From: Craspedostauros australis
Taxonomy: Eukaryota
Length of the DNA stretch: 60,457 bases
Assembly (NCBI GenBank): GCA_030167865.1
Contig: JALAGF010005726.1
Span: 1-60,457 of the forward strand
Direction: 5' to 3'
Shown: in pieces, positions 14,304 to 42,430 of the stretch
Numbering within the stretch: position 1 is the first letter of the stretch
Layout of the letters: every line of letters begins with the position of its first letter
The notes under the pieces: generated by a model
What the model was told of the DNA's origin: nothing
The model's database searches: none
Seen by the model: the letters and a program-made list of their open reading frames with translations, nothing else
Program-made: the position numbers and the translations under genes

Positions 14304-16889
14304 ATGATTCCGAGATGGAGCAACTACAGCAACAGCCAAGTGCGCGTTCCAAGTGGTGTCAACAGCGACATCTCTTCCTCCAAGGACTCGCAGGACAACT
14401 CATGCAGTCCTGGCAACAAGCGAGTCAGCAACATCTGCCGATGGTGGTTGGTGTGCTGCCTCTTCCAGTGCTGCGCTGTTGTCTTGTACTTTCAAAAGAT
14501 CTCGGATTGGACGTTGGAGGCGCAGCTGAAACTGGACGCGCACAACCAGCCTTCGCGGCAGCAACAGTCAGGTATCCATGCAGATTTCCACATCATCACG
14601 ATGGGTCGTGATGGCGGTAGTACTGAACGCCCTGATACGGAACAGAATTCCACCAGTTCACATCATGTCAGCAGCGGACAGAGCGTACCGTCGCATCATC
14701 TGCGGTTGGCCTCAGTTCCGTCCTCTGAACCGCAGCAGGATCATCAACAGTCGACGCCAACAAGCTCTCCAAGCAGCGAAGACGAATTCAACTTGATCAT
14801 TGATACGTTTCGAAAGGTGATGAAGGGAAGGGTATACTTTCAGACGCAGTCCTGGAATCTACTTGCGGGATCGCATCAAGACACCCGAACGAACGTAACC
14901 AACCGTTCAGCGTATGCAGATGACGATCGTGATCATCATCATCATCATCATCATCACTTGCAGATACGTGATCTTCTATCTCAATCGCCTCATCTCCAGC
15001 AGCAACGGCAAACGGCATGGTCCAATTTCGAATCCTTACAACAACAGAAGCAACAGCGACAGCAACAGCGACAGCAACAGCAACAACAATACTCAATACC
15101 AGATGCACCATCAGGCGATCAGAATGATCTCATCATTTGGGACAACGAAGCCGATGTCAGCTCGTACTTCGACCATCTCATCAACAACTGCGGCACCGCC
15201 TTTGATGCCACCACGGACCAACACTTCCAACAGCGATGCTGGGACTCCCTGCTGCATCTTGTCGACGCCCCGCGATGCACAACGCAGCTTGATTCCACCT
15301 TCACATGCGACGGGAATGCCACGGCCTCCATCGACATCAATGCCACGGGCACGGTGAAACCAGCACAGATCCCATCCCTGCGACGCATCGACCCGCAACA
15401 GCTCATTCGAGATCATTTCCTGTCCGCAGACAATTCCATCAACATCGTCATCATCGGTGCTGGTCCGGTCGGTCTGTTCCTTGCCAATATCCTCTCGCGC
15501 GTCAAAGGATTCAAGCGTCCATTGCGTGTCCTCGTCTTCGAAAAGCGGACGACGCAACCGGGTCGCAAGAAGGCCTACGAGCGGGATTGGTTGACAGAAC
15601 TACCCTCGGTCTCCTTCGAGCAGACGGATCCCAGAATCGTGGAGTTCCTCTCAGTCGTTCACACCGAATCCTGCGACGAATACACGGCTCGCATGATGGC
15701 GAAGCGAAAAGCCGCCAAACTCGCCAATAGCACCATCGTGTTCGATGAGAAGGAGCTGGATGTCAGCCAGGTGTCGGAGACCTACGACTGCAAAACGATC
15801 GTTCCCAAATGCATCGACTCCATCACGCATCTGCACACGACCCTTCCGATCAAGGTCCACGAGACCTTCCTCCTCATCTCCAACCGAGAACTTGGCGTTA
15901 AGTTCATCTACGAGGATGTCGCATCGTACAAGGACATGCTGGCGTCCATGCCCAACATGATGGTCTTTGACGCGTCCGGGCATCGCATGGATCAGCTGCA
16001 CAGGGGCGATATCGAGGGTGCGCGTGTCACCATCTCCAAATGGACCGACGAGACCGCGCACGGCCGGGATGACCTGTTGCGGGAGCCGGACTTCGACAGG
16101 GTCGGTCTTAGAACCTACAAGATGCTCAGCCGGATGGACATGAATACGCGTGTTGCGCAGCATGAATCCGACCAGGGCACCATCCTCTACCCAGTCACGA
16201 AAGACACCCACGAACCTTTCGTTGTGCGCATGCTCAAGATCAACGACTCGCGGTACACGCAGGGTTGCCAGAGCCTCTTCATCGATCTGGTCACGGCAAT
16301 GAAGGACGTCATGCTAGCGCAGACCGCATTCTGCAGCTACTGCGCGAAGAGCATACGCCCAGCACAATGTGACAACGTGTGCCGATTGAGCTTTGGTTGG
16401 GACGTCATCGAGAAGTACAGGCAGGACATCGGCCTCAGCATGACGAAGAGGCCGCCGGGATTCGCCACCATGGTCTCCATCCTCACACTCACCGCTCGCC
16501 AGCACGATGCCTTGATGTACCTCACCAAAGGCGGCGCCACCGCGATGCCGCTGGGCACATGGCCATTGACTGCGATGATGTTCGACTCCGTCATGCGCGA
16601 GAACAACCTCATCCACGCTTTGAAGCTTTACTGGCGTTACGCCGGATCCATGTACCCGCTGGCGTCCATGTTGTCGCACGTCCCCTACATTTACGCCGAC
16701 CCGCTGATCCCCACCACGGCCATCACGAACGCGCGCATCGGCGATGCCCCCTTGTTGCGGGTCGGCGATTCCATGTGGACCGGCAATCCCAACTGGTCCA
16801 ACGGATTGACGATGCACGTGGCGACGTTGCACAAGTTCTCCAAGCTTCTCAACGATATCGACACCAACGACGACGATGATGGAATATAG
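14304..16889 (+). CDS. Type II membrane-anchored FAD-dependent oxidoreductase-like protein, paralogue 1 (861 aa)
   Basis: TM RWWLVCCLFQCCAVVLYF; INIVIIGAGPVGLFLA..VFEKR (Rossmann), VFDASGHR (DG-like motif), LLRVGDSMWTGNPNWSNGL (GD motif); clear similarity to three other ORFs in the window. Confidence 0.88.
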   Translation: MIPRWSNYSNSQVRVPSGVNSDISSSKDSQDNSCSPGNKRVSNICRWWLVCCLFQCCAVVLYFQKISDWTLEAQLKLDAHNQPSRQQQSGIHADFHIITMGRDGGSTERPDTEQNSTSSHHVSSGQSVPSHHLRLASVPSSEPQQDHQQSTPTSSPSSEDEFNLIIDTFRKVMKGRVYFQTQSWNLLAGSHQDTRTNVTNRSAYADDDRDHHHHHHHHLQIRDLLSQSPHLQQQRQTAWSNFESLQQQKQQRQQQRQQQQQQYSIPDAPSGDQNDLIIWDNEADVSSYFDHLINNCGTAFDATTDQHFQQRCWDSLLHLVDAPRCTTQLDSTFTCDGNATASIDINATGTVKPAQIPSLRRIDPQQLIRDHFLSADNSINIVIIGAGPVGLFLANILSRVKGFKRPLRVLVFEKRTTQPGRKKAYERDWLTELPSVSFEQTDPRIVEFLSVVHTESCDEYTARMMAKRKAAKLANSTIVFDEKELDVSQVSETYDCKTIVPKCIDSITHLHTTLPIKVHETFLLISNRELGVKFIYEDVASYKDMLASMPNMMVFDASGHRMDQLHRGDIEGARVTISKWTDETAHGRDDLLREPDFDRVGLRTYKMLSRMDMNTRVAQHESDQGTILYPVTKDTHEPFVVRMLKINDSRYTQGCQSLFIDLVTAMKDVMLAQTAFCSYCAKSIRPAQCDNVCRLSFGWDVIEKYRQDIGLSMTKRPPGFATMVSILTLTARQHDALMYLTKGGATAMPLGTWPLTAMMFDSVMRENNLIHALKLYWRYAGSMYPLASMLSHVPYIYADPLIPTTAITNARIGDAPLLRVGDSMWTGNPNWSNGLTMHVATLHKFSKLLNDIDTNDDDDGI

Positions 16890-17931
16890 CCGTGGCGGCG
16901 GTGCACTCGCATGGTACGAGCTACTCGTGGTGCCTTATAACGCAAACAATACACATATAACAAACGATAGACTAATCCTTCACACTCCTGTGGCACCTGG
17001 ATGTGCGCGCGTGGTCGAGAGCACCAGAATATGATATGATACTACCGTGCAGTTGGCATGTGAGATTCATGCTCTACCTTTGTTTTAAGTCTGAGACTCG
17101 TCTGACTACCGCTCGGGGAAAAGCGCACTTCGGTGTTTTGCAACGAAATCCACAGGCATGATTGGGTGCAAACCGGGATATGTATGAAACCGTTGAAACG
17201 GCGTTACACGATAGACGCTGTTATCAATCATGGACGACACAGTAATGCAGCCAATACACTGACGCATACGACATCGATAAGACTCATAATCTGCATCTTT
17301 ACTCTTTTTCACTCTAAATCGGTTTCACGTGTGTCGTAACTTGGGTGAACTGATGTGGCACAAGGAAGTCTTCAAGTGAGACAAAGGTGACCCGGAGTCA
17401 CTCCAAAGTAACAGGTGTCAATCCACTTTTCGGCTAGACCACAGAACGAAGCAAGAGACATGATTGATTTCGACAGTGACCGCCAAGATGAATGGATCAT
17501 GCTGAGGCTGAAGGATGTCCATGTGCACATACGAGCTACCACACATGTGCTCTTCAGGAACGTGGTCCTTGCGTTTCACCCACATAGCTTGTCGCAACGT
17601 CGTTTGGTTGCTCCATTCCATCTCTCGGATCCCCTTTGTTGTCCGTGTGGGAAGAGTTTGATGACGGGTTCGGGATCGTTTCTGTCAACCGTCGATTCTT
17701 GTCGGAGTTTCGCACAAGTGGGCCCTTCTCCTTCCCACAGAAATGGAACCCAAGTCAGGTGTCGAAGGGCGCAAAAACAGATCACTCTCAGAGAGGATCC
17801 ATCAAGAACCAGACTGGCGGCGATTCATCATCACAATTCAAATCAGCCCAGCGCAACTGCGCCCACTGTCGCAACTGCTCGGACGAATGCTCGCACAACT
17901 GTAACACGAAGCAGTGCGAGGCCATCGCTCG

Positions 17932-20844
17932 ATGAGCACCAACATGCAATCTCATTCCACCATGATGGACAGGAGCCTGCGGTCGCACAATCACAAGAAG
18001 AGAAGGCAGACAGTTCTGCTTTGGTGGCTGTTCTGCTTGATCTTTCAATTCTCCATCCTGTTGATCCAATTCCGAAACGCCTCACGATGGCAATCAAGGC
18101 CGGAGACCGCATCGAATCGCCCGGATCATACACGTCGTGACGATCGCAGCGAACGACACAGCCGAGAGGATGGCGGCCAAGGCGCAATCCAAGTTGATGA
18201 AATCACCAATGACAGCCGTGACCATGGTGGCGACGACATTGAAGAAGTGGACGGACATGATGATAACGATGGCCGCGATGATGGCGATAGCGAAGAGGAT
18301 AAAGATGAAGAAAAGGATTCAGAACAATCCATTCGGATACAGTCCAATGACGATCGTGTCCCCAAGCATCGCTTGGAAATGCCGTCGGGAAGTGGCGAAA
18401 AGAAGGAACGGCAGAAGCAGCGATCGCATCACATGCGAAAAGGCCAACACACAGCACAGGACGAATTGAGCATGATCACCGATACATTCCGAAAAGCGCT
18501 CAATGCGAAGCTCTACTACCAAACTCAGACCTGGAACATGCTGGCAGGATCGGAGCTTGATACGCGAGCACATATCCCAAGTCGATCTGCATTTGCCAGC
18601 GATGACGACGGCAACGACTCGCAAATCCGCGATCTCCTTCGTCTGTCTCCGCGGCTGAAATGGCAGAGACAAACTGCATGGTCAAATTTCGATGCAGTAA
18701 CACGGCAGCAGCGGCAGACGCAACAAAAGCAGGTATCAGCTGGACAAACACCAAAACACGACAGTGATCGCATGATCTGGGACAACGAAGGCGATATCAG
18801 CTCATACTTCAACCATCTCTTGTATCATTGCGGGCGGTCCTTCAACGCATTCAAGGACCCGACCTTCCAACAACGGTGTTGGGATTCGCTCATCCATCTC
18901 GTCGATGCTCCACGATGCACGACGCAACTGGATTCCACCTTCACATGTGATGGCGACGCCATCGACTCCATCCAGCTGAATGTGACAGGCACCGTCAAGC
19001 AATCTCGCATTCCAGCATTGCGACGCATCCAGCCTCAGAAGCTGATACGAGGTCATTTCCTGTCGACGGAGAACTCGATCAATGTGGTCATCATCGGTGC
19101 CGGACCTGTTGGTCTGTTCCTCGCCAACGTCCTGGCCCAAGTCAATACATTGAAGACACCAGTGCGCGTCCTCGTCTTCGAAAAGCGCACAAGCCAGACG
19201 GGCCGCAAGAAGCCGTACGAGCGGAATTGGTTGACGGAGATTCCTGCAAGTTACTTTGGGCAGAGCGACCCACGAATTGTGAAGTTCCTCAGAGTAGTGC
19301 ACGAAGATATATGCGATCCTGGTGGAAACAGGGGCGGTGGCAATGCAGCAGCCAAAACTGTGAGCAACGAAAAGGAAAAAGAAGAGAAAGACAGCGATGA
19401 AGAGGAGGAAGCAACGGAGGAAGCATCCGAGGAGGAGGAAGACAAGAAAGAACAGAAAGATAGCGATGAAGAGGAGGAAGAAACTGAGGAAGAGAAAGAT
19501 GATGAGAAGGAAGAGAAAGAGAAAGACAAAAGGAAAGGCAAAGTCATCGATGATGCAGCAGAAGAAGCATCAGAGGAGGAAGAGGAGGAGGAGGAGAGTG
19601 CAGAGACTCACCCAGAGAAACGTCGTAGACTCAGTGTTGTCGATGCAGACGACAGCGAAGAAGAAGTGAATATGTACGGATTCACTGCAGCGCAAATGGC
19701 CTTGAGGTGCCAAATGAAAGCATGGGAAAGCCACACATCCCTTCCCATCAAGTTCTACGAAACTCTCCTCTTGCTTTCGAATCGTGATTTGGGCGTCAAG
19801 TTCATCTACGAGGATGTGACATCATACAAAGACATGCTGGCTGCGATTCCCAACATGATCGTCTTTGATGCATCGGGACATCGGATGGACCCCCTTCAAA
19901 AGGGCTTCCCAAACGATGAAGGCGCCCATTCAGACAAGGATTCGAAAGGTCTGCGCCGGCAGAAGCACCACAAGGGCACCATCACGGTCTCGAATTGGAC
20001 AAGGAGCGAAGGCAACGGGTACGAGGAGGCACTGCGGACTCCACTGTTGAACAAGCTGAGCATTGAGGCCTTCACGCTCATGCAGAATCTGGACATGCAG
20101 GCCAAAGTGGCCCGGCACGAATCGAAGCAGGGGACCATCCTTTACCCAGTCACCAGGGACACCCACGAGCCTTTCGTTCTCCGAATGCTGAAGATCAACG
20201 ACTCCAGACAAACCAGGGCCGAGAAAGGCCTCTACTCTGGACTGAATGGATTCATGAGCGATGTGATGGTGTCCCAGCACCCGCTCTGCAAGTACTGCGG
20301 AGAGCACGTGAAGAAGGGTTGCTTGCAGATCTGCCGGTTGGGTTGGCCATGGGATACGATAGGAAAGTACCGCATCGACATCGGCCAGACCATGGCGAAG
20401 CACCCTCCGGGATTTTCCACCATGGTCTCGATCCTGACGCTGACCGCCCGCCAGCATGACTCATTGATGTACCTGACGAAGGGCGGAAGCACGTCCATGC
20501 CGCTGACTGCGCTGCCGTTGGACTCGATGAAGTTCGACCCGATCATGAGGGAGAACAACCTCGTCCATTTGCTACGGTACTACGCTCGATTCTCAACCTC
20601 TGACTACCCTGTCCTGTCCGTGTTCTCGTACGTACCGTACATCTACACAGACCCGCTGGTACCGATCACCGCCACGACGGATGCGCGCATCGGCAAGGCC
20701 CCTTTGCTGCGAGTGGGCGATTCCATGTGGACCGGCAATCCCAACTGGGCCAATGGGTTGACCATGCACATTGGGGCATTGCACAAGTTCTCGAAGCTCC
20801 TCAATGCCGTCGAGGCCGGAAACGACGACGATGATCGTGTCTGA
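17932..20844 (+). CDS. Type II membrane-anchored FAD-dependent oxidoreductase-like protein, paralogue 2, with Glu/Lys-rich insert
   Basis: KKRRQ then TM TVLLWWLFCLIFQFSILLI; GAGPVG..FEKR, FDASGHR, RVGDSMWTGNPNWANGL. First in-frame ATG at 17932. Confidence 0.88.
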   Translation: MSTNMQSHSTMMDRSLRSHNHKKRRQTVLLWWLFCLIFQFSILLIQFRNASRWQSRPETASNRPDHTRRDDRSERHSREDGGQGAIQVDEITNDSRDHGGDDIEEVDGHDDNDGRDDGDSEEDKDEEKDSEQSIRIQSNDDRVPKHRLEMPSGSGEKKERQKQRSHHMRKGQHTAQDELSMITDTFRKALNAKLYYQTQTWNMLAGSELDTRAHIPSRSAFASDDDGNDSQIRDLLRLSPRLKWQRQTAWSNFDAVTRQQRQTQQKQVSAGQTPKHDSDRMIWDNEGDISSYFNHLLYHCGRSFNAFKDPTFQQRCWDSLIHLVDAPRCTTQLDSTFTCDGDAIDSIQLNVTGTVKQSRIPALRRIQPQKLIRGHFLSTENSINVVIIGAGPVGLFLANVLAQVNTLKTPVRVLVFEKRTSQTGRKKPYERNWLTEIPASYFGQSDPRIVKFLRVVHEDICDPGGNRGGGNAAAKTVSNEKEKEEKDSDEEEEATEEASEEEEDKKEQKDSDEEEEETEEEKDDEKEEKEKDKRKGKVIDDAAEEASEEEEEEEESAETHPEKRRRLSVVDADDSEEEVNMYGFTAAQMALRCQMKAWESHTSLPIKFYETLLLLSNRDLGVKFIYEDVTSYKDMLAAIPNMIVFDASGHRMDPLQKGFPNDEGAHSDKDSKGLRRQKHHKGTITVSNWTRSEGNGYEEALRTPLLNKLSIEAFTLMQNLDMQAKVARHESKQGTILYPVTRDTHEPFVLRMLKINDSRQTRAEKGLYSGLNGFMSDVMVSQHPLCKYCGEHVKKGCLQICRLGWPWDTIGKYRIDIGQTMAKHPPGFSTMVSILTLTARQHDSLMYLTKGGSTSMPLTALPLDSMKFDPIMRENNLVHLLRYYARFSTSDYPVLSVFSYVPYIYTDPLVPITATTDARIGKAPLLRVGDSMWTGNPNWANGLTMHIGALHKFSKLLNAVEAGNDDDDRV

Positions 20845-21739
20845 TATGAGCTATACGCTACAGCAGTACGAGTAAGGCTAGGATCCAGTGTTAAATCCAG
20901 AGTTGCAGTAGGCAGATACCGGATGGACAAGTACGAGCCATGAGTGACATTGAGTATTGTTACTCTCCGTGAGATGAAAGCGCGTACGCATCAATATGCT
21001 CACACACCAATACCATAGTGCTGGGAATGATCGCAAGGTAATAAGCCTTCCATGCATCAAAGCAAACATCTCTCTGCACACACGCCTATGTGCTCTGCAC
21101 CACTCGTACAATACGCACTATGGCATCATGAGTAGCAGCTCGTCGTATGGCACGAAGGACTTCAGTATTATTCTATTAGAATAGGTTGGTATCCCAACAC
21201 ACACACAAGTAGTGGTGGAACATGAATCCACGAAGGGAATCGTGTCAATTCCACAAAGCGACCACCGCCCCCTGCAAAAAAGTGAGCCGGTGTTGTTCCT
21301 TGTGGAACACACGAAAGAGAAGCCAGAAGAGGGAGAGAGAACGGATGGTGCGTGTCCCTCCACCTCCACACGTCCACACACGGAGAAACTTGAGTCGTCA
21401 GCGGCACGTGCCACGGCGACCAACAAATCTTCTCCACTTTACCGCGTTGTTCGCAGAAAAGGCTGCGACAAAAATGGAGGCGAAAGTTCGGTTCCTGCAC
21501 AAACCCACAAACCGCAAAAAAGAGAAGGAACCAGCATTGGCCATCCTCTGGTTTCCATCACAATCAGGCATCTCTGCAGGTTCATGGTCCAACAGAGCAA
21601 AGTGACATCAACGCAAGAGATACCATACTGGTACGAATGCACACTCATATCATCACTTCCAGACATAATAGGAGCTCGTCCAAGCTCGATGCCCATGCCA
21701 TCCCATCCCATCAAGGCGATCCACCCACCAGTGCGAGCG

Positions 21740-24313
21740 ATGGCACCAAAGCATCGTGCAAAGGCACCATCCAAGTCGAAGTCCAAGTCGAAGTCAAAGC
21801 CTCTCCCTCCGCAACGAACTGCCGGGCCATCCACCAACATGGCCACGGACGCGAACACCGAGACCATGACGGCGCGACACGTCGTCAGAAGCAACAACCG
21901 GCGACTGGGCATGGTTCTGTGGTGCACGTTGATATGCGGTATCGCGCAATTCTCCACCCTCGTATTCACACAGGCAGGCGCTGACTACTGGTGGATGCCA
22001 TGGCGAGCTCCTGCAACTGGAGCTGCGACGACGACCGCCAAAGCCTCATCTCCTGGCGTTCCCGACATGCTGCGGTTGCAATCACCCGCCAATGCTCCAC
22101 TCGCTGCCGAAGATCAGGTGCCGTCGCATCATCTGCGGATGCCTGCCACCAACCAGCAGCAGCAAATACAGAGAGATGGCAATGTCACACAGGGCACTGA
22201 TGCTCACGGCCACGCACGATCTCCAAGCTCACAGAATCATGCAAAGCCAGCGCAATCGCAGGCGAACATCACAAAATCAGCCGCAGACCAACAGTTAACT
22301 CAACACGAGATCAGCAGGATCATTCGGATATTCCAAAAGGCCATGAAGGCGAAGATCTACTACCAGACGCAATCCTGGAATCTCCTCGCTGGCTCTGACC
22401 TGGACACACGCGTCGATGTGCCGAGCTGGTCTTCTTTTGCCCAGGGCGATCAGGATCCGCAGATACACGATATGCTCCAGCAATATCCGCAGCTCGAGCG
22501 ACAGAGGGAGATGGCATGGTCATCCTTCGATTCTATGCGGCAACAACAACAAGGAAAGGCAGCCGATGGCAGAATACCATCGGATGGTGAGGATCTCGTC
22601 ATCTGGGACAACGAGAAGGATATCGGCACCTATTTCGACCATCTCATACACAACTGCGGAGACTCCTTCAATGCAACGGAGGACTCGACCTTTCAACACC
22701 GATGCTGGGATTCTGTGCTGCATCTCGCCAATGCTCCGCGTTGCACAACGCAGCTTGATTCCACATTCGAATGCGACGGTCGTGCCGCGGATTCCATCGA
22801 CACCAGCATCACGGGCACAGTGCAGCCGTCTCAGCTTCCGTCGCTGCGGCGCCACGACCCAGAACAGCTGATTCGGGATCATTTCTTGTCGAAGGAGAAT
22901 TCGATCAACGTGGTCATCATCGGCGCGGGTCCGGCCGGTCTCTTCCTGGCAAACATCATGTCGTACCTGCGGCTGGTCGAAGTCCCCATGCGCATCGTGA
23001 TCTTTGAGAAGCGAACGAGTCAGGTTGGGCGCAAGAAGCCCTACATTCGCAACTGGCTCACGGAGATTCCTGCCAGCTCCTTCTATCATGCCGATTCCAG
23101 AATTCTGCGCTTCTTGCAAGCGGTGCACAACGATCGTTGCGAGGACATCGTGACTAAACCAGACAATCCCTACGCCAATCTCGATCACGCGGCAGCCCTG
23201 AAACAGTGCGAAGAGGACAAGTGGGGCAAGCACACCTCGTTGCCGATCCGCTTTCACGAGACCCTCCTCCTGATATCCAACCGTCAGCGCGGCGTCAAAT
23301 TCATCTACGAGGACGTGGAATCGTACAAGGAGATGCTGGCGTCCATGCCCAACATGATCGTCTTTGATGCATCGGGACATCGCATGGATAAGCTGAATAG
23401 ACCGCCGGGGCGGAACCCGATCAACGGGGAGCCCAGTCCAAACATCAACGTGGCACAATGGAGTTCCACGCACGGCGCAGGTTACGACACCCTTCTCGGA
23501 GAGGCCAACATAGGTGGCATCGGTGAGCCCATTTACGAACTCTTGCGCAAGGAACAAGCTCGAGCCCGCGTGGCGCGCTACGAATCGGACCAGGGCGTCC
23601 TCCTGTACCCCGTCACCAAAGGCGACCACAAGCCGTTCGCCGTCCGCATGCTCAAGATCAACGACTTTCGGCACACGAGATATGAGAACGGCTTCAACTT
23701 TCAATATCGCTCTTCCATCTCCGCGGTCATGCTTTCCCAGCACGAGTTCTGCACGCTCTGCGGCAAAGACAGACAACTTGCGGGATGCTCAAAGATCTGC
23801 AGGCTGAACTGGACATGGGATACGATCAACAAATACCGATCGGATGTCGCGCGACGCCTCAACGACGAATCTCCAGGATTTTCCACAACTGTGTCCGTCT
23901 TCACATTGACTACGCAACAGCATGACGCCATGATGTACATCACGAAAGGTGGCAGCACGCCCATGCCGTTGGAATCCTTGCCGTTGTCTGCCATGAAGTA
24001 CGATCCCATCATGCGCGAGAACAATTTCTTCCAAGCGCTCAAGTTCTACGCGAGCTATGCTGGCGGTATCGACTACCCCCTCGTCTCCGTCTTTTCCTTC
24101 GTTCCGTACATGTACGCCGATCCTCTCGTTCCGATGACAGCAGTGACAAAAGCTCGTATCGGCGATGCCCCCTTGCTGCGCGTCGGTGATTCCATGTGGA
24201 CGGGAAATCCCAACTGGGCCAATGGGTTGACGCGGCATCTTTCGACGCTGCGGAGTTTTGCGAAGATGATGCATCCAATCATTGTCGCCGACGATGACGA
24301 TGACGGTGTATGA
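21740..24313 (+). CDS. Type II membrane-anchored FAD-dependent oxidoreductase-like protein, paralogue 3 (shortest insert)
   Basis: RR then TM LGMVLWCTLICGIAQFSTLVF; GAGPAG..FEKR, FDASGHR, RVGDSMWTGNPNWANGL. Start uncertain (ATGs at 21689, 21740 and further upstream; ORF open from 21212). Confidence 0.86.
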   Translation: MAPKHRAKAPSKSKSKSKSKPLPPQRTAGPSTNMATDANTETMTARHVVRSNNRRLGMVLWCTLICGIAQFSTLVFTQAGADYWWMPWRAPATGAATTTAKASSPGVPDMLRLQSPANAPLAAEDQVPSHHLRMPATNQQQQIQRDGNVTQGTDAHGHARSPSSQNHAKPAQSQANITKSAADQQLTQHEISRIIRIFQKAMKAKIYYQTQSWNLLAGSDLDTRVDVPSWSSFAQGDQDPQIHDMLQQYPQLERQREMAWSSFDSMRQQQQGKAADGRIPSDGEDLVIWDNEKDIGTYFDHLIHNCGDSFNATEDSTFQHRCWDSVLHLANAPRCTTQLDSTFECDGRAADSIDTSITGTVQPSQLPSLRRHDPEQLIRDHFLSKENSINVVIIGAGPAGLFLANIMSYLRLVEVPMRIVIFEKRTSQVGRKKPYIRNWLTEIPASSFYHADSRILRFLQAVHNDRCEDIVTKPDNPYANLDHAAALKQCEEDKWGKHTSLPIRFHETLLLISNRQRGVKFIYEDVESYKEMLASMPNMIVFDASGHRMDKLNRPPGRNPINGEPSPNINVAQWSSTHGAGYDTLLGEANIGGIGEPIYELLRKEQARARVARYESDQGVLLYPVTKGDHKPFAVRMLKINDFRHTRYENGFNFQYRSSISAVMLSQHEFCTLCGKDRQLAGCSKICRLNWTWDTINKYRSDVARRLNDESPGFSTTVSVFTLTTQQHDAMMYITKGGSTPMPLESLPLSAMKYDPIMRENNFFQALKFYASYAGGIDYPLVSVFSFVPYMYADPLVPMTAVTKARIGDAPLLRVGDSMWTGNPNWANGLTRHLSTLRSFAKMMHPIIVADDDDDGV

Positions 24314-24576
24314 GGGGGTCAGCGGTGGCAATGTCAAAACGGGGAAACGACATGAACCGCAATCGCAATGTGTCTATGTATTATATGTCTGTACGAGTAA
24401 AGTGATAGAGATAATAAATCGAAACTCGAAGTCTCATGCGACTCGTTGTGGTGGATGGTATGCAGAGCAACACGCAAGCTGAAAAGGAAATGTCCACAAC
24501 GTTGTAATGCAGATACTGGTTTCCATTCTGTTTATATGCATAGGGCCTGCTAGTACGAGCACCGACATACCCAATG

Positions 24577-27251
24577 TTAATCAAACCACCGGGCACCGGA
24601 GCTTTTCTTCGGTTCCGGAGTGGATGCCTGCATGTCGGTAGCATTCGTCGTAGTATCAGTTGCTGCGGTTGCCGCCTTTTTGCCTTTCTTCTTTGGCGAT
24701 TTGGAACGACGAGGACGATGAGCCTCTTCATCGTCCGTGACAGTTTGGGTGACGGCGGCTTTTGGCTTCTTCTGCGGGGTCTCGTCGTTGGACTTCGTCC
24801 CTTCCAGACGCTGCTTGCGTTTCCGCTCACGCTGTCGCGCACCGCGGCTCTTCTTGGCGTTGTTGTCATCGTCGGTCGCCGCGTTCTGTTTGACCTGCTG
24901 CTGCTCCTTCGATTTGAGTTTATTCTCGATGTGCTGTTTCTTGCTGTTGATTTGCTGAGCCACACGTCGTTTCAGCTGCTTCTCCACCTTGACACGATTT
25001 TCGACCTGTGGGAAATTCAAAGCAAGTGCGTGAGAGACGTGCTGTCGTCCAAGGGATACAGATCGCTTCGATTCCCTGCACGCGACCAACACACACACAT
25101 GAACGCAAATACACACGCACAGGGAGTCAAGTAACAATAACGGCCATACCAGTTGACACACGCAGATGCACGTACCGTGAAATCGACAATCAACCGTGAC
25201 AGCACCGGGCCCGAAACCTGCGGCTGCTGCTGCTTCTTGCCCTGCTTCTTCTGGGGTCCCTTGCCACCCGCCACGTACTGCGCTGAATATGCCTTGTTGT
25301 TGTTCAATTCTCGCAAGCACGCCAAGGCATGGACGTGGTACTTGAACTCGATGAAGCCGAATCCGCGGCTGGGCTGCTCCTGCTTCGTCCGCTTCGACAG
25401 CCCGCTCACCATGTCGCGCGAAATGAAGACCGAAGGCAGGAGCTCCTTGCTGAGCTTGTCCTGGAAGGATGGGATGATCTCCTCGTTGTCGGCCTCCTTT
25501 TGCTTCACGAGATCGAGGATGTCTCTTGTGGACAGTTCGCCGGATGCCTGCCAATGCTTGACCTGATCGTCGGCCGTGACGAGGCCGCTCTTCAGAGCCT
25601 TCTTGACCGCCCTGGCACAGAGCTGCTGCAGAGCGAGCTCGTCGACGTGCTTCGCCAGGTTCTTGAAGGAGAGACGGAAGGGATTGATGAAGAACAGCGG
25701 CGACTTGAGCTTGGTGGTCTTCTCCCTGTCGGAAATCTGTCGCTTCTGCTTGTCCTTGTCGGGAAGGAACTGCCAGGAGTCGACGTCCCCACCTTCGGTG
25801 CCACCCCCAACTCTGTCCTCGGATCGCAGGTAGAGGTTGCGACGATCCGTGTTGCGCTTCTGCTGGTCCTTGTCGGAGAATGTGGAGGCGGTTTCGCGAT
25901 TGACGGCGAGCGAGATCATGACTGGGCGACCTCGGATAGTGAGATCGGACTGGTTGAGCATGGTCTTGGACTTGTCGGTGGCGTCGCCGCTGCCGGTGGA
26001 CACAGTTTCGAGCACCTTCGCGGCGAAGCTCTGCTTGGCGAATTCGATGAACGCTGTGCCCTTGTTCATCCCCGTCTGGTTGTCCTTGACGAGGAATATG
26101 GAGACGATGTGGCCGAATTTGTAAAAGAGCTGGAAGACGTCATGCCGCGTGGCGTCGAATGGGAGATTCCCAAGGAAAAGCGTGCGGTTTTCCTCCACCC
26201 CCTCATCCTTCTTGTCATCTTCATCGCTTTCATCGTCGTCGTCATCATCGTCGTCATTGTCGCTATCGTCGCTGCCACTGTCATCTTCCATGTCTGCTTT
26301 GGACTTGGATTTTGCTTGCTCTTGGTCATCGGAATCAGACTCGTCGTCGTCTTCTTTGTCGTTGTCATCATTGTCATCATCGCTGTCGCTGCCACTGTCG
26401 TCGTCACTCCTATTCCCCTTGTCCGCTTTGCTCTGCTTGTCACTCTCTGCCTTCTTCGCCTCCTTTTGCAGCTGCGCGTTGCGTTCATGCATCTGCTTGG
26501 GCACGGACCAGCTGATCTGCAGGGTCCGCTTCTTAACCTCAATCTTGGAGGTATCCTCCACGGCTTGCTTGGCGTACTTGGGATTGGCAAAGGTGACGAA
26601 GCAGAACCCCACGTGCAGATTGGACTTGGCCATCGGCAGATGAATGTCGACGATCGGACCGTACTTGTCCTGCAGGATGGTCTGGATCTGGCGCGCGTTG
26701 GCGTAGAAGGAGAGGTTGCGCACGATGATGCGAGCATGCTTTTTGAGATACCGCTCATCGAAGGTGCTGTGCTTGGTCGCTTCGTGATCGCTGGGTGCGA
26801 GCGGCTTGTGTCGCTGTTTCGGTTTGTCCGCATCGGTGGCAGCAGCTGGCTTGGCGTTTGGATGGGCGGACGCAGCAGCAGAAGCCGACTGCACCTTGAG
26901 CTGGAAGAGCTCGCCGTTCATGGACAGCTGCGTTTCGTTGAAGGAGCTGGCCGCCTCCGCAGCATCCTCCTCCGTCATGTACTTGACGAAGCCGTATCCC
27001 TTGCTGGTGCCATCCTGAGCGGAAGACGAGATCCACGACGACTTCTTGATGGGTCCCACCTGGGAGAAGTGATTCTCCAGCGCATGCCGCGAGACCTGCT
27101 CCTGCGGGGTTGGGACCATCCTCACGAACACCGTGCATTTGGTCGATTTCTTCATCTTGTGGCTTCCGCTCGATGCGGGTGCTGATGCAGATGCTGATGC
27201 AGACGCCTCCCCACCTCTTCCATCAGATGGCGGTCCTCCATGTCTGGCCAT
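24577..27251 (-). CDS. NOP4: Nucleolar multi-RRM protein NOP4/RBM28; intron 25006-25175
   Basis: Four RRMs (KGYGFVKY, IIVRNLSF..VGFCFVTF, LFLGNLPF..KGTAFIEF, RGFGFIEF), acidic linker, DRRNLYL and KLKSPLFFINPFRLSFKNL, HALACLRELNNN. GTACGT donor at 25175 and CAG acceptor at 25006 give LIVDFT-VENRVKV. Confidence 0.9.
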
Positions 27252-31804: not shown

Positions 31805-34210
31805 ATGACCGCAAAGAGGAAGACGAGCATCACATCCGGATCCGCGTCCACCATGACTCCTGTTGTCCCGAACCGCAGGGGAGCCAAGAACGCGAAGAGG
31901 CACATGCTCGCCATCGTCCTCGTCGCTGCCTTTCTGATTGGACAATCCCAATTGCTGACAACGGGCTTCTTGGATACGGCATCCTCCATTTGGGAGTCTC
32001 CCTACCAGCACATCAAGCCAGACTTTCTCTTTGTGGGATACCTTGGTGGTGACGATGATGCCGATGCTGATGCTGAGTGGGAAGATGAGGGGCACAGTGA
32101 TGCTGAGGGTGATGCTGAGGGTGATGCTGATGATGGAATTGATTTCACTCTGTTGCTCCAGCTCAGCCCCAACATCACGCAGATCCGAGCAGCTGTGACG
32201 GGAGAGCAAGGTGAACCCGCCGAGAACGCGGCTCAGCGGCAGAAGCACCTCGAGCAATCCCAAACGGCCGGAGCAACTCTCATCCTGACACAGTCAATGC
32301 AACCAACGAAGCACTCAGCTACGTCCAAACTCTGCGCATGCGAGGTGGTGTCGGTGGACTGTCTCGAATCCATAGACTGCCTCAGCATCCGCGATGACAA
32401 CGAGGATGACACGGATGACGCGTCGTACACCGTCCTGCACGATGGCGAGGAGATCTCGCTGTCCTACGTGCTCACCAACCAGCAGCGACGCCAGGTCATG
32501 ATGGGCATCGCGACGCGCATCGCAATCCGATCCTTCGGCAACATCGTGTCGACCGGAACCAATCAATTCGGTCCCGTCGGCCTCGTCACGCCACCGGGCA
32601 AGGGGATGCAGTACCTGGGCATCACGTCGTGGCAGCATTTCACGCAGCGCAGACCGATGCAGGTGCGGTACGGGACGCGCAATAGCTTCGCCGATGAGCT
32701 CTTTCATCCCGAGTGTCACGCCAATAGCACGTCCAATCCACTGGGGCGCACGTTGGTGGGCAAGAGCTGCTTCTTTCGAGATTGGGATGCGGAGGAACAA
32801 TTCGAGCCCATGGAACAGCTCTCGTGGCCGGCAGCGGGGATTACGGCGGACGCAAGAGCTGTGGGAAGTACAAACGGAGATGCAGACGCGAATGCAACAC
32901 AGCAGCAGACGGCGGAGAATGAAGATGCAGACGAGAGAGAGGGTTCTGACCTGCCCTCGCAATTGCGATCGCTGTCGGCGGCGGCGGCGCATCCATCACT
33001 GTTGGCGCTTGGTTGCTCGGATCTTATTAACGCAAAGCAGTTCCACGAAATGATGCAACTGGCGTACACCGATGTGCGGGACTACATGTCCGCAGTCCAA
33101 GGTCGCAGGATGTGGATCGACGTGAAGACCAATCCCAACTCGACCAAGAACACCGTCTCTCCGATGGCGGACCTGCTGGTGTTCTGCCACATCATTCTCA
33201 TCCGGTACAACCGACGCGCTGGGACGCAACAGTTCTATGACGACCACGTCAAGACCATCGCAGCTCAGACGAGCAGGCACGGTCCCAATCGCAAGGCATT
33301 CCCCGTCAGCATGCATCTCCGGCGAGCGGATTCATGCGGTCACAAGAAACGCCATCGCTTCGAGCCCAAGGCATCGCCGTTGGATTCCGTGCCGCAGACC
33401 TCCGGACGTCGCATGTGCTATGCCACGCGCGTGTACCTGGACAGCCTGGAACGCATCGAAGACAAGGTGCAACGACCGCTCGAGGTCTACCTGTCCACGG
33501 ATTACGCGGAACATCTGCTCACGGAAATTCGAACAGACGAGCCCGACCTGTACAACCGCATCACCTGGAAGGTCATCGAGGTCTCGCGCGATACCTTCAA
33601 GTACCAAGGGTACGTCGAGGGCGCCGAGGACAATCACCGGCACCTCGGAGAGTCCGCCTTCGCCGACATGTGGCATCTCAGCCATGGTCAGGCCTTCGTG
33701 GGGCATCTGGGGTCGCGCTTTGGCAAGGTTTCCTGGTACCTGGCGACAGCGCGGTACAACTCCCTCGTTCCGTTCTTCAGCGTCGACGGGCACAGCGTGT
33801 GCTGCGAAATCGACGAGTCTTGCGGAGCAGTGGCATCGTCCATCACGTCCATGGAGAATTGGTAAGGTATTGTGTGTGTGTGTTCGCGTGTGTGCGTGTG
33901 ACAGTGGGCAGGTAGATGACGGGTGGCGCTGATGGTGGGATTGTTTGCCGACTCATACGTATCGATTCAAACCGCGTTTCTCCAAACTCACAATTGTATC
34001 ATGCGATGCGTCACCTTTGGCCATACGTATGGTAACTGTTCTGGCATTGTATGTTTTGTGTGTGCGCGCAGCCTCACTTTCTCCCATGAGATCCTGGGCC
34101 GGCAGCACGATAGCTACTGGGAAAAGGGATCATTGATGCGCACGGCAATGGCCAACGACCCGAATCGACAGAAAAAATACGCGAGAAGATCCGGATACTT
34201 GCATTACTGA
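31805..34210 (+). CDS. Type II membrane glycosyltransferase, FUT8/GT23-like (GDP-fucose-dependent GT-B fold); intron 33862-34071
   Basis: TM MLAIVLVAAFLIG after basic N-terminus; fucosyltransferase motif-like segments SMHLRRADS (I), VYLSTD (II), ADMWHLSHGQAFVGHLGSRFGKVSWYL (III). GTAAGG donor at 33862 and CAG acceptor at 34071 give MENC-LTFSHE..YLHY*. Confidence 0.75.
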
Positions 34211-38887: not shown

Positions 38888-41800
38888 CTAATACTGACCG
38901 ATCGCCTCCCACAGAAGGTATCCAAAGCGATGCATCGCCGAGAGATGCATGGAGAGGCCGTTGCCCCAGTTGGGATTGCCGGACCACATGGAATCGCCCA
39001 CCCTCAGCAACGGCGCATCACCGATACGGCCATCTGTCACCGCCGTCGTCGGGACCAGCGGATCGGCGTACATGTACGGTGTGTACGTGAATACGGACAG
39101 GATGGGAAAGTTCGTCCCGCCGTGTCGGGCGAGGAATCGCAGCGCGTGGATCAGGTTGTTCTTGCGCAGGACGGGATCATATCCCATCGACTCCAAGGGC
39201 AGCGCCGCCAGCGGCATGGTCGTGCGGCCGCCCTTGGTGAGGTACATGAGGACGTCGCGCTGCTCCGCGGTGAGGGTTAGCACGGCGACCATGGTGGCAA
39301 AGCCTGGCGGGTCGCGATTCATTCTCAGTGCGATGTCCTGGCGGTACCTCTCCATCACGTCCCAGCCCCAGGCCTGCCGGCATATCATGAAGCAGGCCGT
39401 GTCGAATTTCTCCGCACAGCGTGTGCAGAATGGATGCTGCGAGAGCATGATGTCGACCATGGCCGTCACGAGGTTGAAGTGGAGCCCCACGCAGCCTCTC
39501 GTTCGCTGGAAGTCGTTGAGCTTGAGCATGTGAAGGACGAAGGGTTCGTTCGTGTCCTTCGTGACGGGGTACAGCAGCGATCCCTGGGGGGATTCGTATT
39601 GCGCGACACGGATAGTGGCGTTGTCCTCGTCGAGTGCCTGGATGTCCAGTTCGTGGACGAAATTGTTTTGCAGTTCAACTCGATTCCACTCCTCGTGTTC
39701 GTGACCGAAGGTTCCATTCCAGGTGGACACGATGGGATTGAATCCATGTTCCGCTCGTCGTTGCTCCTGCCGAACTCTCGCTCGCAATACCGCAGTCTTC
39801 TTGGCATTTTCCGTTTCTGTGGTGGCTAGTTTTGCGGTCTCGTTTGGCTTCCCGAGCCTCGTTGCCCATCCCCAGGTCTCCGCTTCTGCTTCGACTGCTG
39901 CAGTGGACACGGGGACTCGCTCCAGTGTATCCAAACGATGACCTGATGCGTCGAAGACGATGAGGTTGGATACGGATGCGAGAACGTCCTTGTAGTTGTT
40001 GAAGTCGTCGTAAATGAGCTTGACCCCGCGGTCTCGGTTGGAGAGCATGAGCAAGGTCTCGTGGATCATGATCGGCAGGGAGGAGTACTGGTCATGTCCT
40101 TCCCGCACGCATTCTGGTACGATTTCGGAGCAATCGTACATATGGCAGCTCATCATCGCCCTCCCTTTCATGTAGGATTCGTCTTCGGGTACTGCGTCCA
40201 GCAATGCATCCATCTCGTCTGTCTCCCACCCGGTTGCGCCCTCGCCGGCATAGAAGTAATCGTAGCCGTCGTATTCGTATCCATCATATTCGAAGTCATC
40301 GACGTCTTCCTCCTCGGCGCCGTCTGCTGAATAATCATAAGCATCGAGATCACCCTCCTCTTCATCATCTTCTACTTCTTCGGATGCGTATGTGTATGCG
40401 GAGGCGTATGCGTATTCATCATCGTCGTCGTCATCATTGTTATCCTCTTCGGCCGCGACTGCTACGCCTGTTGCTTCGTCGAGCATGTCCTCCATATCGA
40501 CCAAGCCTTCTTCCACTTCACCGGAATAGTCGTTGGCACCGTACTCTTCCTCCTCCTCGTCGTCGTCGTCGTCTCCGTATGCGTATGCGTATGCGTATGC
40601 ATATGCGTACTCGTCAATACCATCATACTCTTCCTCTTCGTCATCTTGTCGAGTTGAGACTGCTACTGCTTCAGCTTGATCGTCGGTTGTGTATCCTGCA
40701 TCGACCAGTTCTTCTTCGGCATAATATTCGGATGCATCGTACTCTTGCTCCCTCTCCTCGTCTCCTTCGTACGCGTATGCGTACGCGGACGTGTAGTCGT
40801 ACTCGTACTCATCATACTCCTCTTCTTCTTCGTATGCATCTGCGTACGCATACTCATCGCCATCATACTCGCCTTGGTCTTCCTCATCTTGTGTGGCTCC
40901 GACTATTGCTTGCGTTTCGCTGTCACCAAATGTGCGCTCTGCATCAACCAACTGGTCGTCCAGTTCCGCAAAGTACTCGTAGTCATCCTCTGCATCAAAT
41001 TCCGCATCGTCGTCATCGCTGCCGTACCAGTAATCATAGTCGTCGAGGTATGTCTCGCCTTCGTACTCATCGTAGAGATACGCGTCATCCGTCTCATGCT
41101 CATCGACGTAGTCTGCAGCAGCCTGCTGCTCACTCCAGTGGCACGGAACATTGAAGATTGCCTCGAGGAATTGGACGATCCTTGGATCGCCATTCTCAAA
41201 GAGATGGATGGGAAGCTCCGTGAGCCAATCGCGGCTGTAGGGTTTCTTGCGATGCGGTTGCGTCGTGCGCTTTTCGAAGACGACGACTTTCACGTTGGTG
41301 AGGTAGGAGAGGATGTTGGCGAGGAAGAGTCCGGATGGACCAGCGCCGACGATGGCAACGTTGATGGACGCGGCGTCGAAATGGTGTCGGATGAGGTCGT
41401 TCGCAGTGATGGTTTGCCGCGATGCGAGTTGGGATGCAGGCACCGTGCCGGTGGCATTGACGTGGATGGCATCCGTGACGTCGCCGTCGCACGTGTAGGT
41501 GGAATCGAGCTGCGTCGTGCATCGCGGGGCTTGGACGAGATGGCGCAAGGAGTCCCAGCACTGTTCCTGGAAGAGCGGGTGCGTGTCGGCGTTGAAGGCT
41601 TGGCCGCAGTTGTGTATGAGGTGATTGAGGTACGTGTCCACGTCCTGCTCGTTGTCCCAGATGATGCGATCATCGTTGTTCACATCCGCGGTCTCTTGTT
41701 GCTCCTCTGTCTGCTGCTGTTTCTTATCTTGCGCTCCCTGCTTGATGGAATCAAAGGCCGACCACGCAGCCTGGTGCTCCAAATGCGGCAAGCGCTGCGC

Positions 41801-42430
41801 CTGATGGATGGTCCCATCCATCGTCCATTCCTCGCGCCGCCCCGCCAGCGACGGTCGCCGATCCTGATCGGAGGCCACCATGAGATTCCAGAACTTGGTG
41901 TGCGGATTGATCTGCGAGATCATGCTGGTTTGGAACATGTCGATGATCTGCTGACGATTCAGATCGCGCGGTGCGCTGTGTTGGCTGGAGTCGGTGTCGT
42001 CATTGTTGGGACTCGCGATGGTCGCATTGGAATGCTGTGGACACTGTTGCGGTTGTGGCTGATGGATGCTGTGGCCACAGCTGCTGTGATCGCCGCAGTC
42101 CAGCGATGTTACGGAATCAGACAGACGTGCAGCGGAAGCCTGGGAGAGCACAAGCGAGGGCGCATGTTGCTGCTGAACTGCATCAACTATGGCCTGCGTT
42201 GCATCATGCTGCCATCTGGGGACCTCGGAGGGAATGCTCTTGTCCGTGGTCTGGGATGCATCTTGCTCCAGTTGAGACTGCTGCTGAGATTGTTGCTGAG
42301 ATTGTTGCTGAGACTGGTGGCCTGACTCGAGGAGGACGACAGTGCAGTAAGCTGAGCAGAAGAACAGGCAGCTCACGAGGGCCACCTTCCATCCTTGTCG
42401 TTGGGGGTGATGGTTCATCATTCTCTGCAT
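38888..42430 (-). CDS. Type II membrane-anchored FAD-dependent oxidoreductase-like protein, paralogue 4, with about 350-aa Tyr/Asp/Glu/Ala-rich insert
   Basis: TM WKVALVSCLFFCSAYCTVVLL; INVAIVGAGPSGLFLA..FEKR, FDASGHR, RVGDSMWSGNPNWGNGL. First plausible ATG at 42430 (MQRMMNHH). Confidence 0.88.
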   Translation of the reverse strand: MQRMMNHHPQRQGWKVALVSCLFFCSAYCTVVLLESGHQSQQQSQQQSQQQSQLEQDASQTTDKSIPSEVPRWQHDATQAIVDAVQQQHAPSLVLSQASAARLSDSVTSLDCGDHSSCGHSIHQPQPQQCPQHSNATIASPNNDDTDSSQHSAPRDLNRQQIIDMFQTSMISQINPHTKFWNLMVASDQDRRPSLAGRREEWTMDGTIHQAQRLPHLEHQAAWSAFDSIKQGAQDKKQQQTEEQQETADVNNDDRIIWDNEQDVDTYLNHLIHNCGQAFNADTHPLFQEQCWDSLRHLVQAPRCTTQLDSTYTCDGDVTDAIHVNATGTVPASQLASRQTITANDLIRHHFDAASINVAIVGAGPSGLFLANILSYLTNVKVVVFEKRTTQPHRKKPYSRDWLTELPIHLFENGDPRIVQFLEAIFNVPCHWSEQQAAADYVDEHETDDAYLYDEYEGETYLDDYDYWYGSDDDDAEFDAEDDYEYFAELDDQLVDAERTFGDSETQAIVGATQDEEDQGEYDGDEYAYADAYEEEEEYDEYEYDYTSAYAYAYEGDEEREQEYDASEYYAEEELVDAGYTTDDQAEAVAVSTRQDDEEEEYDGIDEYAYAYAYAYAYGDDDDDEEEEEYGANDYSGEVEEGLVDMEDMLDEATGVAVAAEEDNNDDDDDDEYAYASAYTYASEEVEDDEEEGDLDAYDYSADGAEEEDVDDFEYDGYEYDGYDYFYAGEGATGWETDEMDALLDAVPEDESYMKGRAMMSCHMYDCSEIVPECVREGHDQYSSLPIMIHETLLMLSNRDRGVKLIYDDFNNYKDVLASVSNLIVFDASGHRLDTLERVPVSTAAVEAEAETWGWATRLGKPNETAKLATTETENAKKTAVLRARVRQEQRRAEHGFNPIVSTWNGTFGHEHEEWNRVELQNNFVHELDIQALDEDNATIRVAQYESPQGSLLYPVTKDTNEPFVLHMLKLNDFQRTRGCVGLHFNLVTAMVDIMLSQHPFCTRCAEKFDTACFMICRQAWGWDVMERYRQDIALRMNRDPPGFATMVAVLTLTAEQRDVLMYLTKGGRTTMPLAALPLESMGYDPVLRKNNLIHALRFLARHGGTNFPILSVFTYTPYMYADPLVPTTAVTDGRIGDAPLLRVGDSMWSGNPNWGNGLSMHLSAMHRFGYLLWEAIGQY
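40577..40610 (+). repeat. (TATGCG)n hexamer repeat encoding YAYAYAYAY on the minus strand
   Basis: gtatgcgtatgcgtatgcgtatgcatatgcgtac; shorter copies near 40385-40414 and 40769-40786. Confidence 0.85.

Follow-up and report, generated by a model that had tools for sequence, protein, structure and literature searches.

An undescribed family of diatom flavin enzymes that resembles MICAL and appears re-engineered for the secretory pathway

What kind of protein is encoded by a cluster of diatom genes that join a membrane anchor to the fingerprints of a flavoprotein? The question is raised by a contig of Craspedostauros australis (GenBank assembly GCA_030167865.1, contig JALAGF010005726.1), whose positions 1 to 60,457 are referred to here as the window and which carries three tandem plus-strand genes and one inverted copy between positions 14304 and 42430. 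An earlier note on this DNA had described the products as Golgi-enzyme-like, membrane-anchored flavoproteins. The analyses below indicate that the four genes are members of a so far undescribed flavin enzyme family, found in diatoms, which resembles the actin-oxidising enzyme MICAL and was apparently re-engineered for the secretory pathway, probably to act on secreted proteins or sugars. In the best reading of the structure models, the genes encode PHBH-fold proteins on a MICAL-like branch, with binding of flavin adenine dinucleotide (FAD) predicted.

Four paralogous genes in the window

Gene 1 (14304–16889, plus strand, 861 aa), gene 2 (17932–20844, plus strand, 970 aa, with alternative starts at 17944–17965), gene 3 (21584–24313, plus strand, counted from the first ATG) and gene 4 (38888–42430, minus strand, 1180 aa) were recovered as open reading frames (ORFs) with the arrangement and shared architecture reported earlier. 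Each gene encodes one hydrophobic segment ahead of the core (Kyte-Doolittle 19-mer scores of 1.8–2.4), located by hydropathy at about 14433–14489, 18010–18066, 21911–21967 and 42329–42385 in genes 1 to 4, respectively, and followed by a low-complexity stem. The pre-domain and the motifs GAGPxG, FEKR, FDASGHR and LRVGDSMWxGNPNWxNGL were found in all four. Stop codons were absent from the four ORFs, and the genes are taken to be intronless from these open frames alone.

The start codon is ambiguous in genes 3 and 4. Gene 3 has several candidate starts from 21584 to 21866, of which 21839 or 21866 is probable and gives a short N-terminus like that of the other three genes. The stop-free ORF of gene 4 reaches further (38888–42625, minus strand), and 42430 is the most plausible start.

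Protein identity to gene 1 was 54% for gene 2, 51% for gene 3 and 47% for gene 4, and the range across the four paralogues was 47–60%. In all six pairs, differences were most frequent at the third codon position (0.50–0.58), less so at the first (0.30–0.40) and least at the second (0.21–0.31). This order indicates conserved coding genes, and the four sequences are paralogues under purifying selection. Contigs of one sequencing run (X1), whose RNA status is only guessed, matched 20116–20858, which takes in the 3′ end of gene 2, 23899–24107 and 24521–25006 with no differences; this run left most of the window uncovered and was not counted as expression evidence.

Genes 2 and 4 contain inserts in the same loop, which is about 8 aa long in most relatives. 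The gene 2 insert region (19282–19734, plus strand) encodes 151 aa rich in Glu, Asp and Lys and is closed by a Cys pair. That of gene 4 (40085–41173, minus strand) encodes 363 Cys-bounded aa, including 140 Asp/Glu, 49 Tyr, 45 Ala and a single Lys; its tyrosines are flanked by Asp or Glu, with YAYAYA runs, and presumably resemble tyrosine-sulfation contexts. Tyr-rich acidic stretches were present in 4 of 70 family sequences, namely gene 4 and three other relatives.

Relatives and distribution of the family

The family was revealed by exhaustive profile search alone, word-indexed protein searches being nearly blind to it (2, 2 and 14 matches). A profile of 12 sequences was compared with 1.84 billion representatives; 280 matches reached E ≤ 0.001, and 150 of them were listed. 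Alignment A4 (119 rows) was assembled from 104 listed matches, 5 other database proteins and 10 cores from the C. australis genome, excluding fragments, long fusions and gene 4. By score and architecture, 67 rows were labelled eukaryote-type and 52 bacterial-type, with taxonomy known for some only. An unrooted FastTree tree of the FAD core, calculated without the pre-domain, separated the two types with a support of 99 and a single exception (P0067).

Thirty cluster look-ups and one search supplied names for members in Epithemia clementina, Nitzschia inconspicua, Thalassiosira exigua, T. oceanica, Detonula confervacea and Chaetoceros neogracilis, and for one in a MAST-4 stramenopile. The family is present in both centric and pennate diatoms, and one cluster of relatives contains an MMETSP transcript. 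Profile comparison shows the bacterial relatives to be genuine homologues (E 1e-18 to 1e-35), and 20 bacterial loci in scattered phyla were found in a GTDB scan. A metagenome scan yielded 16 loci. A plasmid search gave no match to the family. Scans of IMG/VR returned 32 and 25 pattern matches, none of which was confirmed as a relative, unlike ESM Atlas and BFVD, which show giant-virus look-alikes.

Within the C. australis genome, two protein searches agreed on 13 intact loci, which encode 11 distinct proteins because three of the ORFs are identical; these are minimum counts, and assembly duplicates may be among the copies. The four window genes formed one clade (100/99), and the ten own-genome sequences tested formed one clade among all relatives (support 99), indicating a lineage-specific expansion with a local sub-expansion in the window. 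The earlier view of a locally expanded family was therefore too narrow as a full account, given the 13 intact loci genome-wide and the relatives in other diatoms, MAST-4 and bacteria. Three further copies (L015, L016 and L017 on contigs C4963, C5610 and C3822) are frameshifted and 5′-truncated, and are identical over 2779 bp. They resemble the paralogue on contig C1943 and are either pseudogene duplicates or assembly redundancy. DUF7640 repeat proteins (L080:7388–10000 and L084:7600–8937) lie just upstream of two closely related paralogues (L010 and L012), a pairing that suggests segmental duplication.

A full-length match to a characterised enzyme family, which the earlier note had named as evidence that would count against it, was looked for; Pfam, NCBIfam and PDB sequence searches matched nothing beyond the Rossmann strand. 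Neither Pfam nor NCBIfam has a model for the family, and where its members have a name at all, they are called hypothetical. Searches of open-access PMC and bioRxiv text found no description of it, although a mention in a gene table could have escaped them. Indeed, the statement that no described enzyme has this design agrees with what the family libraries, the PDB and the open-access literature yielded.

Predicted fold and structural neighbours

AlphaFold2 models were obtained for the gene 3 core, which is the sequence used for the structure model and provides the residue numbering throughout (predicted local distance difference test, pLDDT, 89.1; predicted TM-score, pTM, 0.92), and for a relative from Gallionella (pLDDT 93.6, pTM 0.93). 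Both models have the two-domain fold of PHBH and the group A flavin monooxygenases. In Foldseek searches, ranks 1–6 for the gene 3 core (best E 3e-7) and ranks 1–9 for the Gallionella relative (best E 2e-10) were all MICAL. Together with VIA-align, these models bear out the fold assignment proposed earlier and place MICAL among the nearest neighbours.

VIA-align gave Z scores of 10–15 for KMO, PHBH, PhzS and VioD and of 9.1–11.8 for MICAL, and the top group A scores were 11.6–12.1 for the gene 3 core and 15.1 for the Gallionella relative. The alignments with MICAL were the longest or near-longest (288–302 and 282–294 residues) and began at MICAL residues 14–19. Residues 1–85 of MICAL form a four-helix bundle that has no counterpart in PHBH and has been proposed to help bind the protein substrate (PMC3645671). 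The second half of the helical pre-domain of gene 3 (22307–22780, plus strand) aligned structurally with this region, with a gain of only about 25–35 residues. The models are suggestive of a link between the family pre-domain and the MICAL bundle.

By ESM features, the nearest neighbours were unnamed bacterial and giant-virus clusters, followed by clusters bearing Rossman_Mical (0.93–0.95). The best structural match overall was the Tupanvirus ORFan A0A6N1NWF8 (BFVD; E 3e-9, TM 0.39/0.49). BFVD thus contains giant-virus ORFans and a kinase fusion with this fold (A0A6N1NWF8, A0A6N1NUP4 and A0A7D3V5L1), the first being closer than MICAL. The Tupanvirus protein and the uncharacterised bacterial TPR-fused flavoproteins differ from the diatom proteins in lacking a signal or anchor and the conserved cysteines, and in their substrate-side residues.

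The MICAL monooxygenase domain (PDB 2BRY, 6ICI and 9EWY) likewise has a PHBH fold after a helical N-terminal region, but identity to it was 11–17%. No PF25413 was found in Pfam scans, and no MICAL chain occurred among the 35 PDB profile matches listed or, in a further search, among the best 60 of 193. (PF25413 also gave no match in the C. australis genome, which is uninformative, control genomes having given none either.) The window proteins contain no CH, LIM or coiled-coil region in Pfam searches, and their C-terminus lies about 25 aa beyond the GD motif. They differ further in having a secretion signal and paired cysteines, MICAL being cytosolic, in the D-A-S/T-G at the DG position, and in a Pro that we take to lie at the position of MICAL Trp400. 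The group A enzymes (PHBH, KMO, PhzS, VioD and TetX) share the GxGxxG and GD motifs and gave the highest VIA-align scores (Z 10–15, about 260–270 aligned residues, root-mean-square deviation 3.7–4.7). Unlike these enzymes, the family has no canonical DG, an extra 190-residue pre-domain, and extra helices and a Cys cluster in the substrate domain, and its members came near no curated cut-off beyond the Rossmann strand. Judged from the models, the family would work like a PHBH/MICAL-type flavoenzyme, but it is not a member of MICAL, having no CH or LIM domains and no sequence match, and it does not carry the canonical DG expected of group A.

Conserved residues of the FAD site

Of the three fingerprints that the earlier note had assigned, two were recovered as described and the second was not. 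A motif scan placed FAD motif I (GAGPAG), FEKR and a KxYxRxW segment of gene 3 at 22922–23056 (plus strand). GxGxxG was present in 66 of 67 eukaryote-type and 51 of 52 bacterial-type rows, the acidic residue that closes the beta-alpha-beta unit (E/D234) in every aligned row, and the R-x-W segment was conserved in both clades. Residues G206, G208, G211, E/D234, R248, D354, G357, G627 and G640 were 94–100% conserved across both clades, and R359 was conserved at 92% and 83%. The GD fingerprint (gene 3 region 24176–24229, plus strand, by motif scan) was kept in all four window genes; in eukaryote-type rows its Gly was invariant and its Asp was found in 76% (Asn in 18%), and in bacterial-type rows the Asp was found in 100%.

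The second fingerprint, FDASGHR in gene 3 (23363–23383, plus strand), is non-canonical. In place of DG, the pattern D-A-[ST]-G was present in 65 of 67 eukaryote-type and 46 of 52 bacterial-type rows (111 of 119 in total). The lycopene cyclase of the window has D-T-T-G-H at this position. MICAL-1 naturally lacks the Asp of the DG position and is more active without substrate (PMC5772675). MICAL-1 being active nonetheless, the change of this Asp need not abolish activity in the family.

Orientation of the catalytic domain

The catalytic domain very probably faces the lumen, judging from cysteines, N-terminal segments, charge bias and a mild excess of sequons, as the earlier note had proposed. 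The pre-domain of gene 3 carries the invariant Trp of QSWN and the cysteines C117, C133, C146 and C156. These cysteines were found in 64/64, 64/64, 60/65 and 61/62 eukaryote-type rows and in 3/49, 2/51, 3/51 and 5/49 bacterial-type rows, respectively. The pre-domain itself is present in both clades, with W24 and D151 nearly invariant, and is not a eukaryotic add-on; bacteria have a helical counterpart without the cysteines. A second cluster (C482, C485, C494 and C498) lies with Lys450 on the substrate-domain strand of gene 3 (23648–23803, plus strand), and C482 and C498 were kept or lost jointly (both in 45 sequences, neither in 3, one alone in none).

Topology was scanned by hydropathy and charge, a crude procedure that involved no dedicated predictor. 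Among 97 full-length database proteins, an N-terminal hydrophobic segment was present in 37 of 50 eukaryote-type and in none of 47 bacterial-type sequences; it was likewise absent from all 15 named bacterial ORFs. Nineteen of the 37 segments started within 12 residues of the Met and were signal-peptide-like, and the other 18 were later anchors, of which 16 had the more basic flank on the N side. Sequons were 1.12 times as frequent as in shuffled eukaryote-type sequences (2 of 200 shuffles as high) and 0.87 times in bacteria. Lumenal topology is well supported because the cysteines are clade-specific and 19 of 50 relatives have signal-peptide-like starts. Plastid targeting was rejected, a crude motif scan having found a plastid-type motif in none of the 19 early segments.

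The description of the proteins as Golgi-enzyme-like and membrane-anchored fits the 18 type II-like anchors but not the 19 signal-peptide-like starts, and a good number of the relatives may be secreted in soluble form. Basic residues (2–6 Lys/Arg) precede the segment in all four window genes, as had been noted, with a weak bias in gene 1 (2 basic and 1 acidic residues upstream, 2 and 2 downstream).

Domain fusions and gene neighbourhoods

TPR matches were found in 17 of 67 bacterial-type proteins scanned, along with S-adenosylmethionine (SAM)-methyltransferase fusions (P0077, P0114, L059 and L062) and a GT4 fusion (P0070/L076). Anchors were absent from the bacterial clade, in which such TPR, methyltransferase or GT4 fusions were frequent. 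Two eukaryote-type proteins (P0001 and P0041) join the flavoprotein core to LRR, placed between anchor and core, or to ankyrin repeats.

Bacterial neighbourhoods were inspected at 18 loci, with up to four ORFs on each side and no background rate computed. Tailoring enzymes were fused to or near the relative at nine of them (L057, L059, L060, L062, L068, L069, L071, L072 and L076). The neighbours included flagellins with a TPR-sulfotransferase and a TPR-methyltransferase (L068) and a LanM with a leader peptide (L057), and elsewhere among the nine a TPR-2-oxoglutarate (2OG) oxygenase, a GT2 with rmlA, and SET. At three loci of Nitrosomonadales/Gallionella (L059, L062 and L063), the relative sits inside a TPR-lolB-ispE-prs region.

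In two of six stretches fetched from the C. australis genome, a type II-like sulfotransferase or a GT61 gene lay within about 2 kb of a paralogue. These were the type II-like sulfotransferase L082:3099–4769 (E 1e-5) and the GT61 gene L084:1159–2688 (E 7e-12), each adjoining another paralogue of the family. Genes of both kinds are common in diatoms, which makes this neighbourhood a weak clue.

Candidate functions

The reading that we tentatively place first is that the enzymes are flavin oxygenases of the lumen, with secreted proteins or glycoconjugates as the molecules they tailor, each catalytic step being drawn by analogy from relatives. A bacterial cytoplasmic tailoring enzyme would have entered the stramenopiles, a direction that we infer from an unrooted tree, and would there have acquired disulfides and either a signal peptide or a type II anchor; local duplication would then have expanded the family in this genome. 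Within the secretory pathway, the protein would fold, bind FAD and form its disulfides, and it would act in the lumen of the endoplasmic reticulum (ER) or Golgi or at the cell surface. A donor would reduce the FAD, reduced FAD and O2 would form a C4a-hydroperoxyflavin, and this would oxygenate secreted macromolecular cargo at a side chain or a sugar. The enzyme would work beside sulfotransferases, methyltransferases and glycosyltransferases like those that accompany the bacterial relatives, and the paralogues would diverge in substrate-side residues and loops.

Precedents for a protein-acting enzyme of the PHBH fold are MICAL and the peptidyl-Trp dihydroxylase QhpG (PDB 7CTQ), which has the same fold (Z 8.2 and 12.1). 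QhpG hydroxylates a protein side chain and reportedly was not reduced by NAD(P)H (PMC7876137). It differs from the family in being cytoplasmic and single-turnover and in having a winged-helix domain, with no closeness beyond the fold. The same evolutionary pattern is seen in the 2OG/JmjC hydroxylases, which in bacteria are linked to sulfotransferases and methyltransferases and in stramenopiles are extracellular, Cys-bearing, lineage-expanded and predicted to modify surface proteins (PMC2938197). Their fold, that of Fe/2-oxoglutarate dioxygenases, is unrelated, and the role assigned to them is likewise a prediction.

Several observations weigh against lumenal tailoring by a MICAL-like enzyme. 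Foldseek TM-scores to MICAL were low (0.25–0.41), and VIA-align placed the small-molecule hydroxylases KMO, PHBH, PhzS and VioD 2–3 Z units above MICAL, which together hold the label MICAL-like at moderate strength. The canonical DG ([AGC]DG..S) occurred in none of the 119 rows, its Asp being missing everywhere in the presumed register relative to PHBH. Substrate-side residues decay from the bacterial to the eukaryote clade: K450 falls from 100% to 60%, W504 from 98% to 37%, K636 from 94% to outside the top two residues, and N639, 96% in bacteria, is replaced by T/S. The bacterial function need not carry over as a consequence. Nine of the 18 bacterial loci had no tailoring context, and no neighbour gene was common to most loci. 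A clear hydrophobic segment was lacking in 13 of 50 eukaryote-type proteins, including Nitzschia P0009 and P0158 and Epithemia P0012, some of which may be truncated gene calls. The association of cysteines with signals is one phylogenetic contrast rather than 97 independent cases, Cys parity was uninformative (33 even, 29 odd), and an ER-retention motif was found in 0 of 70 sequences. A lumenal source of NADPH was looked for through the two G6PD loci of the genome and none was identified; neither has a readable signal peptide, the 5′ end of one being unresolved.

A bolder form of lumenal tailoring, which we regard as rather doubtful, makes the bacterial TPR-fused clade the prokaryotic sister group of the MICAL monooxygenase, with a role in oxidising residues of flagellin and other surface proteins. 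Diatoms would have moved the bacterial enzyme to the lumen as a flavin counterpart of the prolyl and aspartyl hydroxylases, giving a new post-translational oxidation of secreted wall or adhesive proteins without cytosolic NADPH.

It is unlikely, but the best of the remaining explanations, that the proteins are lumenal or extracellular oxidases, in which a substrate or uncoupled NAD(P)H reduces the FAD and O2 yields H2O2 for the oxidative cross-linking of matrix or adhesive, a reading close to the guess made in the earlier note. Electrons supplied by the substrate would make lumenal NAD(P)H unnecessary, and gene 4 offers a Tyr-rich acidic loop. Replacement of the DG Asp by Ala in MICAL-1 reportedly leads to a high consumption of NADPH independent of substrate and to increased H2O2 (PMC5772675), and the DG Asp is likewise missing from this family. 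However, the top structural neighbours are all monooxygenases or halogenases, the Tyr-rich stretches are confined to the few sequences given above, and the literature search found no link to adhesion or extracellular polymeric substances.

Less likely again is a lumenal or secreted monooxygenase that acts, as classical group A enzymes do, on a small molecule, be it an aromatic, a lipid or a signalling compound. The small-molecule hydroxylases had the highest VIA-align scores, and one bacterial locus (L064) lies behind FabZ/ACP and ketosynthase genes. R359 is presumably at the position of PHBH His162. His162 of PHBH contacts the pyrophosphate of NADPH (PMC6315137). The TPR, LRR and ankyrin fusions and the putative MICAL-like N-terminal bundle point instead to large substrates, and the stem-and-anchor design suits cargo in transit.

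That the proteins bind FAD but are catalytically degenerate, serving as scaffolds, redox sensors or matrix components whose fold displays acidic loops, is improbable. The decay of substrate-side residues, the tolerance of 151- and 363-aa inserts beside the FAD domain and the LRR fusion agree with such a role, but the FAD-site glycines, E234, R248, W250, E318 and D354 remain 91–100% conserved and K450 is retained by all four window genes. An N-terminally anchored enzyme facing the cytosol, as in P450s and squalene epoxidase, which would use cytosolic NADPH and possibly act on the cytoskeleton like MICAL, is very improbable: it would solve the reductant problem and suit the cytoplasmic location of MICAL and the bacterial relatives as well as the 13 relatives with no clear signal, but the paired cysteines are specific to the eukaryote clade, and the basic bias of the anchors, the 19 signal-peptide-like starts and the sequon excess stand against it. 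Least probable of all is a reduced-flavin enzyme with no direct use of NAD(P)H, namely a halogenase or a non-redox cyclase or isomerase, for although D-A-[ST]-G resembles the D-T-T-G-H of the window lycopene cyclase and a similar motif of halogenases, halogenases occur among the VIA-align structural neighbours (Z 8.1–12.7) and K450 is invariant in bacteria, the flavin-dependent halogenase motif (WxWxIP, sought as WxWxI[PG]) was found in 0 of 119 rows and no halogenase or cyclase profile gave a match clear of noise, the best being Trp_halogenase (E 0.003 over 36 residues).

Other open reading frames in the window

Between genes 3 and 4, the ORF at 31805–33865 (plus strand) encodes a protein of 686 aa that has a stem and, at its N-terminus, a hydrophobic segment. 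Its HLRRAD and VYLSTD, we assume, recall alpha-1,6-fucosyltransferase motifs; a fucosyltransferase was not confirmed, Pfam and PDB searches having given no support. The lycopene cyclase mentioned above (51918–53774, minus strand; PF05834, E 1e-55) has a signal-like N-terminus. Ankyrin-repeat ORFs were found at 3163–5049 (minus strand), 7364–9052 (plus strand), with a weak BTB/BACK match besides, and 28267–31248 (plus strand), in which near-identical tandem repeats were seen by eye. The window also encodes a weak LRR protein (9321–11120, minus strand), a multi-RRM RNA-binding protein recognised by eye (25017–27251, minus strand), a 26S proteasome subunit 7 ATPase (47215–48645, plus strand) and a weak match to cyclic nucleotide phosphodiesterase (59363–60226, minus strand).

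Biological significance

The family is uncharacterised and has a traceable bacterial sister clade. Lumenal flavoproteins of other families are known, and MICAL is treated as an unusual, cytosolic protein-oxidising enzyme. A MICAL-like clade with secretion signals and disulfides would extend protein oxidation to the lumen, and it raises the concrete question of how the flavin is reduced in that compartment. Because the bacterial members are small (about 490 aa), soluble and well modelled, the chemistry is directly testable. For diatoms, the family supplies candidate enzymes for the oxidative maturation of secreted wall and adhesive polymers.

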